From sequence record NC_049824.1: 50,709 nt of DNA. The stretch is one strand, 5' to 3'. The position numbers and the translations under genes are program-made. Under the pieces are notes generated by a model. It had not been told where the DNA came from. It worked only from the letters and a program-made list of their open reading frames with translations, and made no database searches. This document shows, piece after piece, positions 15,335 through 49,861 of the stretch (position 1 is the stretch's first letter; each line of letters starts with the position of its first letter). This DNA is from Escherichia phage vojen.

Positions 15335-15847
15335 ATGGCTACAATTGGAGCAAGTTATTTTGCTGTAATGTCTCGTGCGTTACCTGGTCAGGTTTCTGAC
15401 ACTTCAGCTTATAATATTGATGGCGCTTGTGTTCTTGAGAATGCAGCAGGCAATCAGAATAAGCCTGTTTTTGTTGGTGTGGCTGTCCAGCATGGCGGCG
15501 TTGATGCTATGGGCAATAAGCTAATTAAGCCGATGGCGGCAAGCGGCAAGGCTTACGGCGTTGCAATTCGATCTCACTTCCAGACAACTTCGGCTGACGG
15601 TCGAATGATTTATGAATCTGGCGGCGGAATCAACGTAATGACTGAAGGGCGTGTTTGGATGTTGGCTAAAGACGCCGCCGCGCCAGCGTTCGGCACTACA
15701 ATCAAACTTTCTGAGGATGGTCAGGTTGATACCGGGTCTGGCACTATCGAAACAAACTGGATCGCGACTGGTGATTTCACCAAGTTTCAAGACTTGAAGC
15801 TGGTAGAGGTTCAGGTGCAAAAAGTTCCTGCAGTTTCAGCAGTTTAA
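15335..15847 (+). CDS. putative head decoration / structural protein (paralog 1)
   Basis: 170 aa; shares motifs with the next ORF (INVMTEGRVWMLAK vs VNVVSRGSVWCLTS); followed by a strong terminator. Confidence 0.45.
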   Translation: MATIGASYFAVMSRALPGQVSDTSAYNIDGACVLENAAGNQNKPVFVGVAVQHGGVDAMGNKLIKPMAASGKAYGVAIRSHFQTTSADGRMIYESGGGINVMTEGRVWMLAKDAAAPAFGTTIKLSEDGQVDTGSGTIETNWIATGDFTKFQDLKLVEVQVQKVPAVSAV

Positions 15848-38956: not shown

Positions 38957-39430
38957 TTAGCAATTAGTGCTTTCAGGTTTATACAGGAATCCGCCAGGTT
39001 CATAATCTGACATTCTTACCACTCGCAACATTTCACGCTTATCACATCTCTTTGTGAGCGGTTTTCCATTGGAATCAAATCGCAGATCTGGACGGCAGAA
39101 TGAAGCGCGATAGCCTTGACAGCCATACTTTTTGTAATCGTTATGCACCTTTTGAGCGCCAGCGGCTGAAATCATACCGCGAACGCGCCACTGATTTACA
39201 GTTTGCTGGCTAACGTTAAGACGCTTTGCCATTGCTGACACGCTGCCGTAATACTCAATAAGAATGTCAAGCCGTGCTTTTAGTCCGGCGCGCACTTCAT
39301 CTTTTAAAACATAGTATCCTGTAGGGCGCTTGCGCTTTTTCTTATCTTTACCCCGTCGAGTTCCGTTATTGCCATTGATTGTGCGTTTGTCAATCTTACC
39401 AGTTGATACTGCGATTCGCTGTTCTTTCAT
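38957..39430 (-). CDS. putative DNA-binding regulator (basic N-terminus, HTH-like segment)
   Basis: KDKKKRKRP basic stretch; LNVSQQTVNQWR HTH-like segment; GGAGA RBS; start abuts a conserved element in the divergent region. Confidence 0.5.
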   Translation of the reverse strand: MKEQRIAVSTGKIDKRTINGNNGTRRGKDKKKRKRPTGYYVLKDEVRAGLKARLDILIEYYGSVSAMAKRLNVSQQTVNQWRVRGMISAAGAQKVHNDYKKYGCQGYRASFCRPDLRFDSNGKPLTKRCDKREMLRVVRMSDYEPGGFLYKPESTNC

Positions 39431-39444
39431 TATTCATTCTCCAA

Positions 39445-39464
39445 TAGCATTTTTTGTTAAACGA
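39445..39464 (+). promoter_or_regulatory. Conserved element, variant ATAGCATTTTTTGTTAAACG
   Basis: In the divergent region between the HTH gene and helicase; TATTAT at a ~16-bp gap. Confidence 0.5.
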
Positions 39465-39519
39465 TGATTTAATGATTGTGTATTATACACGCCAAATGGC
39501 ATTACTCAAAGGTTTTAGA

Positions 39520-41565
39520 ATGATTCCAAACATTGAAAAGCAAATATCAGCACTTGGTGAAGCGGTAATTAAATCCATTCAGGAGCGATTCACTGTTGGC
39601 GAGATTGTGCCTTACCCTTACCAGTGCGTTGCATACGCTGAGATCGCAAAGCGTATGAAAAATTATGAGCATCCATTCTTTGTTAAAGCGTCCGTATCGG
39701 CTGGCAAAACATTGATGTTTGCAATGGTTGCTCACCAGTGCCGGAAAATGGGCTTGAAAATGATGGTACTTGCTCGCCAGGCTGAGATTGTGGATCAGGA
39801 TTCTGAAGAGATAACAAATCTTGGTGTGCCGAACTCCATCTATTGTGCAGGACTGAAGACAAAAAGCGCATACTTTCCGATCGTTGTTGGTTCTGAGGGA
39901 ACTGTAGTTAATGGACTGTTTAAAGCGCTTGGCGACTATGTTCCGCACGTTATCGGGATCGACGAGTGTCACCAGGTGGATTGGGAAGACCTTGCCGACG
40001 CAATAGAGAAAGACGAGTCATTTTTACAAATGACAACTAAGAAAGGCGAAAAAGTACCAAATCCAGATTATGACATAACAAAGGGAAGCAGGAACAGAAA
40101 TACAGAGTTCCTGATTGGTGAGGATGGCTTGCCAATGGAGGGAACAGGCCGCACACAATACACTGTCATTATCATGGAAATGATGCGCCGCTGCCGGAAA
40201 ACATATGGTCATGAACTGCGCATATTTGGCATGACTGGATCGGAGTTTCGCGGCGTAGTCCCGATCCTGGTGGAAGACAAAAAACAGAAAGGATTCTGGC
40301 GTGAACAGGTTACTAATATTGACACCAACTACCTGATCAAATTCGGTTCTGTTGTGCCAACAAATTTTGGCGACGTTGGCGATCTAGGGTATGACCTTTC
40401 AGAGTTTGAGGCATCCAGTGAGGATGGCGTTGCAGACTTTGACGCTAAAACGCTTCGCAGGATGGAACAAAAAATTCATGAAGAAGCGACCATGACAAAG
40501 CGCATCATGGCGAAAGTTCACGAGATCTGTAAAAACCGCAACGGCGTACTTGTGACATGTGCAGGAGAAAGGCATTGCAAAGAGGCAGCGGCAGCGTTGC
40601 CACCTGGAACGACTTACAGGATAATTACTGGTAAGACTGGCGACAATCAGCGCAAGGAGTGGTTAAGGGAAGCATACGAAGGGAAAGTAAAATACATCTT
40701 CCAGGTTCAGGCGCTAACAACTGGCGTTAACGTGCCGTTTTGGGATACGTCGGTTATATTGCGTAAGATTGGATCTCTTACGTTGCTGATTCAGCTTTTA
40801 GGACGCGGAATGCGACTTCTTAAGAAATGGCATAAGGAGCAAGGCTTCAAGAAAGATGATCACCTGGTTATGGATTTTTCAGGAACGATGGACGAGTTAG
40901 GTGAGCTTTATTTTGATCCGATACTTGAACAGGCGCAGCATCAGAAGCGATTCAGGAACGGTAAAGATCCGAAGCCTTGTCCTGTTTGTGGAACTCTTAA
41001 CAGCTATTATGCTCGTCGTTGTATGCACGTAGACGAAAACGGCAACAGATGCGAGTGGTTCTTTAAATTCAGGACATGTGATGATCAGATTGACCCACGC
41101 ACTAAAAAGATTATTCAGCGCGGCTGTGGAACTAAAAATGATATTGCGGCCAGGGTATGCAGACATTGCGACATGTCATTGATTGACCCTAACGAGAAGT
41201 TAAGCGGAAAGCACTACACAAAAAACGACTGGTTTCAGGTGCAATCTTTCTCGGTTGACATGACGAAAAACCAGAAAGGGATAATATTTAATTATGAGCT
41301 TTCCGATGGCATAGACACTTTCAGAGCGCGTGAAATATTTTTCCCTGAATCAGAAAGCCAAATTTGTCGCGCAAAATGGAGAAATGTTGCTCTTAAGCAC
41401 ATACCGGATCGCCGTATTGCTGGCATGGTGGCGAGCTATCGTAATGCACGTAAAATCATGCAATATGTGAATCACATCATGCCGCCATCGCGTGTTACTC
41501 ACAGAAAGACTAGCAAGAGTGAAGATAATTTGTACAAGAAGGACTTTAATTATGGCAATGACTGA
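39520..41565 (+). CDS. SF2 DNA helicase with C-terminal zinc-ribbon motifs
   Basis: Walker A SAGKT; DExH-like GIDECHQ; C-terminal CPVCG...RRC and CGTKN...CRHC; start moved from in-motif TTG to ATG. Confidence 0.65.
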   Translation: MIPNIEKQISALGEAVIKSIQERFTVGEIVPYPYQCVAYAEIAKRMKNYEHPFFVKASVSAGKTLMFAMVAHQCRKMGLKMMVLARQAEIVDQDSEEITNLGVPNSIYCAGLKTKSAYFPIVVGSEGTVVNGLFKALGDYVPHVIGIDECHQVDWEDLADAIEKDESFLQMTTKKGEKVPNPDYDITKGSRNRNTEFLIGEDGLPMEGTGRTQYTVIIMEMMRRCRKTYGHELRIFGMTGSEFRGVVPILVEDKKQKGFWREQVTNIDTNYLIKFGSVVPTNFGDVGDLGYDLSEFEASSEDGVADFDAKTLRRMEQKIHEEATMTKRIMAKVHEICKNRNGVLVTCAGERHCKEAAAALPPGTTYRIITGKTGDNQRKEWLREAYEGKVKYIFQVQALTTGVNVPFWDTSVILRKIGSLTLLIQLLGRGMRLLKKWHKEQGFKKDDHLVMDFSGTMDELGELYFDPILEQAQHQKRFRNGKDPKPCPVCGTLNSYYARRCMHVDENGNRCEWFFKFRTCDDQIDPRTKKIIQRGCGTKNDIAARVCRHCDMSLIDPNEKLSGKHYTKNDWFQVQSFSVDMTKNQKGIIFNYELSDGIDTFRAREIFFPESESQICRAKWRNVALKHIPDRRIAGMVASYRNARKIMQYVNHIMPPSRVTHRKTSKSEDNLYKKDFNYGND

Positions 41566-41983
41566 TAAAGGCGATTATCTGGAGTTTTACGAAAGAGATC
41601 CGACGGATACGCTAAAAGAGGAATCTCACCAGATCGGGGCGTTTCAATGGTTAACTTATGCTCATCCTGAATTTCTTGCCTGGCATACTAAAAATGAGGG
41701 CGACAAGGGGATCGCCACCGCAATGATGGATCAGCAAGCAGGACTCGTTAAGGGCGTAAGTGATTTTATCATCCTGATTGGATTGAAAGGCCGCTACCCT
41801 TTCGCGGCTATTGAGATGAAACGCGTCAATAAGTCTGGCAAGGGTAAGTCTTCACCAGTCAGCAAGGATCAAAAAGCCTTCTTGCGTCGTGTGCGTGAGC
41901 TTGGCGGATTCGCTGCCGTAACATACGGATATAAGCAATTCATGATCGCGGTAGAATACATGATAAATAGCACTTTTTGTTAA
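41552..41983 (+). CDS. VRR-NUC-like nuclease
   Basis: C-terminal segment with SDFIIL...AIEMKR consistent with a PD-(D/E)xK/VRR-NUC core; last five codons encoded by the next motif copy. Confidence 0.5.
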   Translation: MAMTDKGDYLEFYERDPTDTLKEESHQIGAFQWLTYAHPEFLAWHTKNEGDKGIATAMMDQQAGLVKGVSDFIILIGLKGRYPFAAIEMKRVNKSGKGKSSPVSKDQKAFLRRVRELGGFAAVTYGYKQFMIAVEYMINSTFC

Positions 41984-41986
41984 AAC
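41967..41986 (+). promoter_or_regulatory. Conserved 20-bp element ATAGCACTTTTTGTTAAAAC
   Basis: Exact motif followed by GGCGC...GCGCC dyad and CATAAT at an 18-bp gap. Confidence 0.55.
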
Positions 41987-42044
41987 AGGCGCGAAGGATT
42001 GCGCCATAATAACACCAGTTCAACAAGCAACAGGTAATTAAGAA

Positions 42045-42746
42045 ATGAGTAAAGAAACTGAAGTGACATTTGAACAAATAGAAAGAGAAACATTCATTGG
42101 CAATGCTCTTGCTACTGGAGGCCATTACCAGGCTGTTAAACCAAATCAATATTATAAAGTCACTGGCAACCGCTATAACGGCAGCAATACGCCGGACGTT
42201 GTGCGCGATTTGTGGTCTACGCCGTATGAGCTTGTCGCATGGATGGAAAGCGAATACGGTGATTATGACATCGACGCGGCGGCAAGCAAAGAAAATGCTG
42301 TATGTGAAAAATTCTACAGCAAGGAAACAAATTGTTTAAAGCGTTGGTGGGGTAGTAATAAGCATATATGGCTGAATCCACCGTACAGCAATATTACGCC
42401 ATTTGTTAAGAAGGCGATTGAGCAAATGGAGCACGGAAACCAGATCGACATGCTTTTACCTTGCGACACGTCAACAGGATGGTTTTATGAGGCGCAACAG
42501 CACGCAGCGGAAATAATCTGGATCACTGGAGAAGTTTACCAGGAGGACGGAACAGAATATTCCCGCACCGGACGCCTGGCGTTCACTTCAGCGCTTACAG
42601 GTAAACCAGTGCAGGGTAACAATAAAGGAAGCGTTATTTTCATCATGCGCGAACTTAAAGAAGGTGAGCAGCAGAAAACGCGATACGTTAAAATCAGCGA
42701 CATTTGCCCTTCGGTGGCAGACCGTCGCGCACGGAAACGGAGCTAA
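42045..42746 (+). CDS. dam: DNA N6-adenine methyltransferase (phage Dam-like)
   Basis: NPPY catalytic motif (LNPPYS) in a 233-aa protein. Confidence 0.7.
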   Translation: MSKETEVTFEQIERETFIGNALATGGHYQAVKPNQYYKVTGNRYNGSNTPDVVRDLWSTPYELVAWMESEYGDYDIDAAASKENAVCEKFYSKETNCLKRWWGSNKHIWLNPPYSNITPFVKKAIEQMEHGNQIDMLLPCDTSTGWFYEAQQHAAEIIWITGEVYQEDGTEYSRTGRLAFTSALTGKPVQGNNKGSVIFIMRELKEGEQQKTRYVKISDICPSVADRRARKRS

Positions 42747-48121: not shown

Positions 48122-48339
48122 TTGATCCGCTCTATGCTAACTAAGATTTTTTCTGGTTCCTTTGCACTATGGCAATGCGCGGTTACAGAATCAACAAAAT
48201 CAAAGTAAAGTGATTTGTGATATGAAAATCCAATCAGCCACCCAACCATCGTTTTCTTTATTGGCCTGACTATATCGCCAGGCCTGAAGGTTTTTGTTGC
48301 TGATTGAGTCACCTTATAGCGATATTCAGTCTTGATCAC
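48118..48339 (-). CDS. hypothetical protein (73 aa)
   Basis: ORF with ATGA overlap to the upstream gene. Confidence 0.45.
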   Translation of the reverse strand: MIKTEYRYKVTQSATKTFRPGDIVRPIKKTMVGWLIGFSYHKSLYFDFVDSVTAHCHSAKEPEKILVSIERIK

Positions 48340-48722
48340 TTATACATGGCCTCAAACAAATGACAGCCACCAGCGGAAAACCCTACTTCTTCGCGGTATA
48401 GCGTCCAGCGATCGCCAGCTTCATCAAACACATAACCAGCAACATCGCCAAGAGCGCGGCCTTGCTCAATCTGGTAGCGCTTTCCTTCTTTGAAATGCTT
48501 TTTGCAAGGGATCTTGTGATCTACAAAGGTGCATTTAATTGTTTTTGTCTTGATATGACGATAGTCAGACTCAACCGCGTTTTGCCACTTGCTACCCTTT
48601 GTAATGCTCTTTACCTGGAATTGTTCCAACTCGATCACATCATCGCTACCAGCAATTTTTTCGTATACGGTTTTATAGCGCCCGTTCATCAAAACGTTGG
48701 TTTTATTGCAGATAACTTTCAT
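48336..48722 (-). CDS. hypothetical protein (128 aa)
   Basis: ORF with GGAGA RBS downstream of a complete motif/dyad/CATAAT module. Confidence 0.55.
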   Translation of the reverse strand: MKVICNKTNVLMNGRYKTVYEKIAGSDDVIELEQFQVKSITKGSKWQNAVESDYRHIKTKTIKCTFVDHKIPCKKHFKEGKRYQIEQGRALGDVAGYVFDEAGDRWTLYREEVGFSAGGCHLFEAMYK

Positions 48723-48777: not shown

Positions 48778-48797
48778 CTTTTAACAAAAAGTGCTAT
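48778..48797 (-). promoter_or_regulatory. Conserved 20-bp element (minus-strand reading ATAGCACTTTTTGTTAAAAG)
   Basis: Exact motif followed by GCCAGG...CCTGGC dyad and CATAAT at an 18-bp gap, then RBS and ATG of 48336..48722. Confidence 0.55.
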
Positions 48798-49498
48798 TTT
48801 GCGTTAGCTTCAAAGACTGCGCGGGCAAAACCGCGCGGGGTGAGGGAGCGGATCATCTTTGTGCGAGATGATTTTCCGCCAGTTTTGGCCCAACCAGGAT
48901 TATCCTTCTCAGTTGGTAATATCATGTTTTTAGGTGGAACGATAAATCCGTTACCAGTCCAAAGGCATGTTTTCTTAAAGTACCGATCCCGCGCAGGAAT
49001 AATATCAGGGAAGTCGGGATGTTTATCATCTTCCGGTAAATATCCGGCGTAATCGCACGGATGGAACGTGTAATCAGGCTTACGCCATAACGTTGACAGC
49101 TTGCCTACAGGATTCTCTATCATGTAAGGAACACCGAAATAATCAGCGATATGCGCGGCTATTTTGCAAGTGTCGGCGGCCTCATTTTGGAAGTTAGGAT
49201 TTTCCATGCGCTTTTTAGCCCAATGGCGAGATCCGCTGTTTGCTAATTGTGTGCAAGGTGGGAAGGCCATAATGAAATCAGGCTTACCCCAATTTTCAAG
49301 TTTTGCGGTATATTTGAATAGATCATCAATCCACACATTAACGTAAAAAATATTATCATGGATTATGCGCACTGAGTGGTAATCTCCGTGATCAGCATCA
49401 TCGTAATTAAAGCAAATGCATTTATATCCATCATCAGCCCAATCTTTAACAGCCTTACCAGATCCATCAAACAAAGAGAAAATTAAACCTTTATACAT
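48794..49498 (-). CDS. DNA cytosine-C5 methyltransferase-like protein
   Basis: Motif I-like LFDGSGKA, PC-containing motif IV-like FPPCTQ, ENV-like MIENPVG; 234 aa is short for this family. Confidence 0.5.
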   Translation of the reverse strand: MYKGLIFSLFDGSGKAVKDWADDGYKCICFNYDDADHGDYHSVRIIHDNIFYVNVWIDDLFKYTAKLENWGKPDFIMAFPPCTQLANSGSRHWAKKRMENPNFQNEAADTCKIAAHIADYFGVPYMIENPVGKLSTLWRKPDYTFHPCDYAGYLPEDDKHPDFPDIIPARDRYFKKTCLWTGNGFIVPPKNMILPTEKDNPGWAKTGGKSSRTKMIRSLTPRGFARAVFEANAK

Positions 49499-49507
49499 TT
49501 CATCACC

Positions 49508-49732
49508 TCAAAACGGAAAGCATCGCGGGCAGTTAGGATCAAAATTGCAGCCGCAATCATTGACAATCATAGTTGGATCTGCAAATGCAGCGCCGCATTC
49601 ATGATCCATATCCATTTCACCCAGCGCATCATCAAGCGTCCTGATCTTATATGCAACTTCAAGCGCTGTCTCTTTATTTAATCCGGCATCTTCAGCCATT
49701 TGCAGGCGCTCAAAAAATCCGTCCTGACTCAT
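49508..49732 (-). CDS. small Cys-rich protein (74 aa)
   Basis: Start moved to ATG with AAGGAG RBS; C-terminal CGC...CPRC cluster. Confidence 0.45.
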   Translation of the reverse strand: MSQDGFFERLQMAEDAGLNKETALEVAYKIRTLDDALGEMDMDHECGAAFADPTMIVNDCGCNFDPNCPRCFPF

Positions 49733-49861
49733 TTCATAAACTCCTTGATAGCAAACAGAATAATAGCAAGACCAGCAGTGACAACCCAAAGACCAATAAG
49801 GCCAATCATCACTCCCAATAAAATATCAAGAAATTTCATCATTATTATCACCTTTATTTAA

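Follow-up and report, generated by a model that had tools for sequence, protein, structure and literature searches.

The window analysed here, the whole 50,709-nt stretch of DNA from Escherichia phage vojen, contains two DNA methyltransferase genes on opposite strands. The first, dam, encodes a phage N6-adenine DNA methyltransferase of 233 aa (42045..42746, plus strand), while the second, a dcm-like gene, encodes a compact C5-cytosine DNA methyltransferase of 234 aa (48794..49498, minus strand). A sequence-only reading of this DNA had listed an NPPY-containing 233-aa protein at 42045..42746, where both the open reading frame and the motif are confirmed with exact coordinates; the cytosine gene had been listed with its strand missing. 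Because the alignments of relatives run past the end of the window into its start, it is probably a complete, circularly permuted T1-like genome. It shares ~95% nucleotide identity with phage haarsle over its full length and 93.9% with KarlJaspers (BASEL Bas06) over 96% of its length, and its last 9.7 kb has matches in 368 phage records. From these genomic similarities, vojen is a T1-like coliphage of the family Drexlerviridae and subfamily Tempevirinae, in the genus Hanrivervirus like haarsle and KarlJaspers.

The gene immediately 5′ of dam encodes a VRR-NUC domain protein (41492..41983, plus strand; PF08774, E 1.7e-9), whose true start probably lies downstream of 41492. Between the two genes is a GC-rich hairpin, GGCGCgaaggattGCGCC (41988..42005), which appeared terminator-like on the minus strand in our scan; T1 has a rho-independent terminator annotated at the syntenic spot (38973-39001). 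The order SF2 helicase, VRR-NUC, dam is common to vojen, T1, TLS, haarsle, KarlJaspers and BrunoManser, and the annotation of SRT8 lists the three genes in the same way. In vojen this block occupies 39454-42746, its helicase having ResIII and Helicase_C domains, and it lies within the replication and recombination module. Its domain content is superficially like that of a Type III restriction-modification system. We considered such a unit and rejected it, since the block recurs across the T1-like genomes that we examined, adjoining primase and recombination genes. The VRR-NUC protein is part of this conserved block and is not a restriction enzyme.

The dcm-like gene is preceded by the Shine-Dalgarno sequence GAGGTGA (49503..49509, minus strand), which overlaps the stop codon of the upstream open reading frame. 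That upstream neighbour (49508-49789, minus strand; 93 aa, phrog_9323) and the neighbour on the other flank (48336-48722, minus strand; 128 aa, phrog_2684) are both conserved phage proteins with no Pfam match. Around the two methyltransferase genes, ten and nine neighbouring open reading frames were scanned with Pfam and PHROGs, which recovered no restriction endonuclease and no Vsr. The matches recovered were the helicase, the VRR-NUC protein, a DUF3987 helicase, a DNA-repair exonuclease and small proteins of unassigned function. The relatives have the same neighbourhoods, and the earlier view of both genes as orphan methyltransferases lacking an adjacent endonuclease is thus borne out.

The adenine enzyme is readily classified. 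It matches the Pfam family PF05869 (Dam; E 4.4e-61; 205.9 bits, cut-off 28.1) and the NCBIfam equivalog TIGR01712 (phage_N6A_met; E 1.2e-54; 184.3 bits, cut-off 97.05), and it is 98% identical to KarlJaspers bas06_0042, annotated as a Dam-like N6-adenine methyltransferase. The amino-methyltransferase catalytic motif IV, NPPY (residues 111-114; 42375..42386, plus strand), is invariant among the Dam proteins of vojen, T1 and TLS. In the segment DIDAAAS (residues 75-81; 42267..42287, plus strand) the same three proteins share D75, D77, A78, A79 and A80. From what we know of the family, we take this segment to be like the AdoMet-binding motif I. PF05869-type Dam proteins occur in 1866 of 50,697 phage records. 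The only Pfam matches of vojen Dam at E<=1 were PF05869 and a spurious match to ICL, with none to the alpha-class family of E. coli and T4 Dam (PF02086), and on these profiles vojen Dam belongs to a family distinct from the latter.

With regard to specificity, vojen Dam is likely to methylate adenine in GATC, since it is 67% identical over 218 aa to the Dam of T1 (M.EcoT1Dam, YP_003925.1), a demonstrated GATC methylase. T1 grown in a dam- host still carries GATC methylation, deletion of T1 dam abolishes it, and with host Dam alone the progeny DNA of T1 is partly sensitive to MboI (PMC10470545). The T1 enzyme itself has no significant similarity to the Dam of its E. coli host (PMC10470545). The earlier label of a Dam-type adenine methyltransferase therefore had both function and family name right, provided that it is not understood as homology to E. 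coli or T4 Dam. In vojen the presumed target is not avoided, with 296 GATC sites against zero-order and Markov expectations of 191 and 282, respectively.

The cytosine enzyme matches phrog_757 (DNA methyltransferase; E 4.2e-85), whereas neither Pfam, PF00145 included, nor NCBIfam gives a match at E<=1. Sequence searches of both methyltransferases against PDB chains returned only noise, and even a profile of the Dcm-like family reached only E 0.2, with DNMT3B as the sole match, in which motifs I (FDG) and IV (PC) align. Three segments nonetheless stand out in the protein. FDGSG (residues 10-14; 49457..49471, minus strand) corresponds to the AdoMet-binding motif I (FxGxG), aligning with SLFDG of DNMT3B by the family profile. 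PPCTQ (residues 80-84; 49247..49261, minus strand) corresponds to motif IV, with the catalytic Cys82, and aligns with the PC motif of both DNMT3B and E. coli Dcm. IENPV (residues 127-131; 49106..49120, minus strand) corresponds to an ENV-type motif VI with Glu128. In an alignment of 40 sequences, D11, G12, S13, G14, P81, C82, E128, N129 and P130 are all invariant.

Structure prediction points the same way. An AlphaFold2 model built from 40 homologues has a mean pLDDT of 92.2 and a pTM of 0.89, and contains the C5-methyltransferase fold. In a Foldseek search of the PDB, its first matches were the catalytic domains of DNMT3B and DNMT3A (E 7e-8). The protein is thus predicted, from model and motifs together, to be a genuine orphan C5-cytosine DNA methyltransferase, and the earlier description of it as C5-cytosine-methyltransferase-like on the motifs FDGSG, PPCTQ and ENP fits both fold and conservation. 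It had also been called unusually short, which is correct, and the short length is a trait of the whole family. This family comprises 2847 homologous clusters at 90% identity and 1247 representatives at 50% identity, mostly of 210-260 aa, and is found in 1498 phage records.

The C-terminal half of the protein is where its assignment is least secure. LWRKPD (residues 137-142) is a candidate motif VIII, and RSLTPRGFARAV (residues 217-228; 48815..48850, minus strand) is a candidate motif IX. The latter aligns weakly and locally with RRLTPRECARLMGF in E. coli Dcm, its residues R217-R222 are invariant, and we tentatively regard it as a motif IX-like segment. No canonical GNAV-type motif X can be seen, the protein ending at residue 234, six residues past RSLTPRGFARAV. 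Between LWRKPD and RSLTPR, the presumed target-recognition region is only ~70 aa. Homology gives no specificity for this enzyme, because it shares no detectable similarity with E. coli Dcm and has no PF00145 match at E<=1.

What the cytosine enzyme does can be approached through a relative that has been tested experimentally. KarlJaspers bas06_0055, which carries the annotation of a Dcm-like C5 cytosine methyltransferase, shares 93% identity with the vojen protein. The enzyme tested comes from KarlJaspers strain Hzau42 (K42), where a 711-bp dcm encodes it; the K42 and Bas06 genomes share 95.4% identity (10.1101/2023.08.16.553469). The K42 Dcm is presumably the orthologue of the vojen protein, the protein comparison having been made via Bas06. 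In that work, all four of four mutants that escaped retron Ec86 had either a disrupted dcm or a changed base 9 bp 5′ of its start codon. Expression of K42 dcm was toxic only in cells carrying the retron, and the enzyme placed 5mC on msDNA, as detected by LC-MS, and activated retron Ec86. This effect was lost in a C82A/E128A/K175A/K176A mutant (10.1101/2023.08.16.553469). The study was later published (Cell Rep 2024, 10.1016/j.celrep.2024.114857) and has been cited by later papers. In vojen, position -9 from the ATG of the dcm-like gene falls within the ribosome-binding site GAGGTGA, and this position would correspond to the base changed in the K42 escape mutant.

These results bear on the possibility that the C5-methyltransferase fold serves a chemistry other than methylation, such as the addition of a non-methyl group (e.g. 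carboxymethyl, as with CmoX) or the production of a precursor for hypermodification. We consider this very improbable indeed, given that the K42 product was identified as 5mC by LC-MS (10.1101/2023.08.16.553469). Among the scanned neighbours, no gene for a TET/5mYOX protein, a glycosyltransferase or a Cx-SAM synthase was evident, and the CmoX score of the vojen protein was no better than that of ordinary methyltransferases. Taking the enzyme to be a C5-cytosine methyltransferase, the remaining question is its target. For the K42 enzyme, CCWGG was taken as the target on the model of host Dcm, with support only from site mutants of msDNA: retron defence was lost when either C of the CCTGG site in msDNA was mutated (10.1101/2023.08.16.553469).

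The distribution of CCNGG sites in phage genomes provides a further indication. The vojen genome holds 119 CCNGG sites against 118.9 expected, and in the five whole genomes examined the ratio of observed to expected sites (zero-order) is 0.95-1.13. Yet the central base of vojen sites is strongly skewed, at 64/52/2/1 for A/T/C/G. CCWGG is commoner than expected (116 sites vs 66), whereas CCSGG (CCCGG/CCGGG) is reduced to 3 sites against 52.5 expected, located at 15732, 31338 and 43008. TLS, in which a Dcm-like gene is also present, has counts of 49/66/0/0. Two members of Sertoctavirus in which tblastn finds the gene to be absent are the mirror image of vojen. SRT8 has counts of 4/4/97/66, or 8 CCWGG against 163 CCSGG sites, while BrunoManser has 2/2/66/86, or 4 against 152. 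In T1, where the gene is likewise absent, there is no CCNGG skew and neither half has been purged (27/56/26/39).

The simplest reading of these counts is that methylation shields CCWGG in vojen, and that CCSGG, the half of CCNGG left unprotected, has been purged. EcoRII cuts CCWGG and Ecl18kI cuts CCNGG (PMC2577326). Among 57 Dam-centred loci, clean assemblies with an intact Dcm-like gene all contain CCWGG at 1.1-2.0 times expectation, and none has purged it. The site statistics speak for CCWGG being the target, and for an anti-restriction role, to the extent that correlative evidence can, the CCWGG-purged phages being a single genus and the pattern phylogenetically clustered. The suggestion that target recognition by this short enzyme may be atypical is sustained only in part: the recognition region is small (~70 aa) and the protein has no detectable similarity to E. 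coli Dcm, but the sites point to an ordinary CCWGG target.

Not every carrier of the gene follows the vojen pattern. In the same Dam-centred loci, ~17 phages with a Dcm-like gene show no CCSGG purging. We considered that these might encode an enzyme variant acting on CCNGG as a whole, and dropped the idea because no residue tracks purging: in an alignment of 36 distinct Dcm-like proteins, no column separates CCSGG-purged from non-purged phages. We also looked for derived C-to-T changes as a footprint of methylation among 9 distinct close relatives (>=88% identity, ~18 kb), stratified into synonymous, nonsynonymous and intergenic positions. Among 69 CCWGG sites, the inner C had changed in 7, compared with a background of 17%; it showed no hot spot in a test that had no positive control. 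Nor, again with no positive control, did any 3-5-mer context survive the 869 tests made (minimum p 0.002).

Three apparent carriers of the gene that have no or almost no CCWGG were also rejected. Shigella phage 2019SD1 (NC_049820) is 92% identical to vojen over its positions 1-20697, and aligns in 33 pieces of mixed orientation. Its Dam and Dcm coding sequences are fragmented across three reading frames, and gap openings reach 6.65 per kb where other relatives show about 1. None of the 36 vojen CCWGG sites that it covers is kept, these having changed to CCGGG, CCCGG, CC-GG, CCGTG and similar sequences. Such a record suggests an assembly of low quality in which bases at methylated CCWGG were systematically miscalled. 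If so, the errors would be accidental evidence of CCWGG modification in a close relative of vojen, a modification of which host Dcm could also be the source. The other two, IMG/VR contigs 2974728900 and 2974785742, are indel-rich, scrambled assemblies with partial or inverted-duplicate Dcm-like matches and 1 CCWGG site each against ~26 expected; they too are probably assembly problems.

A different view of the cytosine enzyme is that its target is not CCWGG, or not CCWGG alone, and that it acts on a shorter or relaxed motif, on the outer C, or on hairpin or single-stranded DNA. Its recognition region is small, it is unrelated in sequence to Dcm or M.EcoRII, and its closest structures, DNMT3A and DNMT3B, are CpG enzymes. 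Furthermore, msDNA from dcm+ MG1655 with an empty vector held little 5mC, compared with much when the phage enzyme was supplied, suggesting that host and phage enzymes behave differently on msDNA (10.1101/2023.08.16.553469). That difference could however be a matter of mere over-expression, and the loss of retron defence on mutating either C of CCTGG speaks for the Dcm motif. Clean genomes with the gene all keep CCWGG, at 1.5-2.4 times the zero-order expectation, and Sertoctavirus genomes that lack the gene have purged CCWGG, while the purging of CCSGG in vojen makes CCNGG-wide methylation unlikely. Taken together, we find a target other than CCWGG, or wider than it, distinctly unlikely. A bolder variant of the CCWGG reading is that the phage enzyme may differ from host Dcm in substrate range, for example by accepting hairpin msDNA that host Dcm leaves largely unmethylated.

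CCNGG sites are not the only short sequences with unusual counts in vojen. Several six-base palindromes are strongly avoided, including (observed/expected) GAATTC (3/14.8), GATATC (1/14.8), AAGCTT (1/14.8), CTGCAG (1/9.2), GGTACC (0/9.2) and GTCGAC (0/9.2). AGTACT, TACGTA and TCTAGA are each absent against ~14.8 expected. TLS, unlike vojen, retains GAATTC (30 sites) and GATATC (22 sites).

We consider it highly probable that vojen carries two orphan methyltransferases of the T1-like type, a GATC-specific Dam and a CCWGG-specific Dcm-like enzyme, with specificities as in their tested relatives and a role in anti-restriction. For this particular phage, both the specificities and the role are inferred from its sequence. 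In the proposed mechanism, the pair would be typical of Tempevirinae T1-like phages. Dam would use AdoMet to form N6-methyladenine at the 296 GATC sites, a phage enzyme being needed because that of the host would be slower than phage DNA replication. The Dcm-like enzyme, encoded in the early-gene arm, would, through Cys82, place a methyl group on C5 of cytosine, most likely at the inner C of the 116 CCWGG sites. Together, the two would render progeny DNA refractory to enzymes of the GATC type and of the CCWGG or CCNGG type (EcoRII or Ecl18kI-like). CCSGG, the half of CCNGG that the Dcm-like enzyme would leave uncovered, would have been purged from the genome. The cost would fall in hosts carrying retron Ec86, where activity on msDNA would lead to abortive infection.

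Alternatively, the methyltransferases might serve mainly phage-internal functions, such as replication, packaging, gene timing or evasion of mismatch repair, rather than anti-restriction. Deletion of T1 dam results in a smaller burst size even in a restriction-free host (PMC10470545), and dam sits in a replication and recombination block beside the helicase and VRR-NUC genes. In the BASEL collection, moreover, where N6-adenine and C5-cytosine methyltransferases are abundant among the Drexlerviridae, methyltransferase genes show no simple link to resistance against the restriction systems tested there (PMC8594841). On the other hand, the reciprocal purging of CCWGG and CCSGG points to strong selection of the restriction type, acting precisely on the motif family of Dcm, and internal and anti-restriction roles are mutually compatible. 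A mainly internal role seems to us unlikely, and anti-restriction remains our preferred account of the two enzymes.

Much of this was already known. Genes like the dam and dcm-like genes of vojen have long been annotated in T1-like coliphages, experiments have been done on close relatives of both, and finding them is in itself ordinary: the two genes are annotated in records such as those of TLS and the BASEL phages, the biochemistry and genetics of T1 Dam have been studied, and a KarlJaspers-type Dcm has been published as what triggers retron Ec86 (10.1101/2023.08.16.553469). The sole new element is the switch in the central base of CCNGG that tracks the presence or absence of the Dcm-like gene, of which a limited full-text search of the literature found no description. 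Such a switch is a cheap indicator, obtainable from sequence only, of what an enzyme protects. We speculate that the Dcm-like enzyme decides which half of CCNGG a T1-like phage keeps, although on present evidence we lean slightly against so general a rule.

The Dcm-like enzyme cuts both ways, being a probable shield of CCWGG against EcoRII-type restriction, yet also a source of sensitivity to retron Ec86. E. coli BL21 is a natural carrier of this retron (10.1101/2023.08.16.553469). Two CCWGG-purged phages without the Dcm-like gene, vB_EcoS_IME347 and SRT8, were isolated on E. coli BL21 or BL21(DE3), and the absence of the gene may be what allows them to grow on BL21-type hosts. The trade-off bears on the prediction of host range and on the choice of strain for propagation.

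Among known systems, T1 Dam resembles vojen Dam in length (237 aa against 233 aa in vojen), in its NPPY and DxDAAA motifs, and in the position of its gene after those for the helicase and the VRR-NUC protein; the two proteins differ at one residue in three, and their first ~15 aa cannot be aligned. In TLS (NC_009540; genus Tlsvirus), the annotated dam (gp62) and dcm (gp75) are syntenic with both vojen genes, at about 67-68% protein identity. KarlJaspers bas06_0055 shares with the vojen Dcm-like protein its start, its neighbours and residues C82, E128, K175 and K176, but the two proteins differ by a two-residue deletion and several substitutions across residues 184-198, in the presumed target-recognition region.

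Beyond the phages, the DNMT3A and DNMT3B catalytic domains are only 10-18% identical to the Dcm-like protein. They are eukaryotic CpG enzymes that work as oligomers, such that this structural match is silent on vojen specificity. A further comparison is with E. coli Dcm and M.EcoRII (PF00145, CCWGG-specific, 472 aa), of which the vojen protein is half the size. Neither BLASTP (E 5.9) nor hhalign (probability 1.3%) gives it significant similarity to E. coli Dcm; the PC of motif IV and an LTPR..AR segment resembling motif IX can be recognised, as weak local matches. It has no Vsr partner gene, and its target-recognition region is unrelated to that of E. coli Dcm. Even so, it probably shares with E. 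coli Dcm both target sequence and chemistry. If the link between the gene and the CCNGG switch is causal, a recognition region of ~70 aa, unrelated to Dcm, has converged on the target of Dcm.
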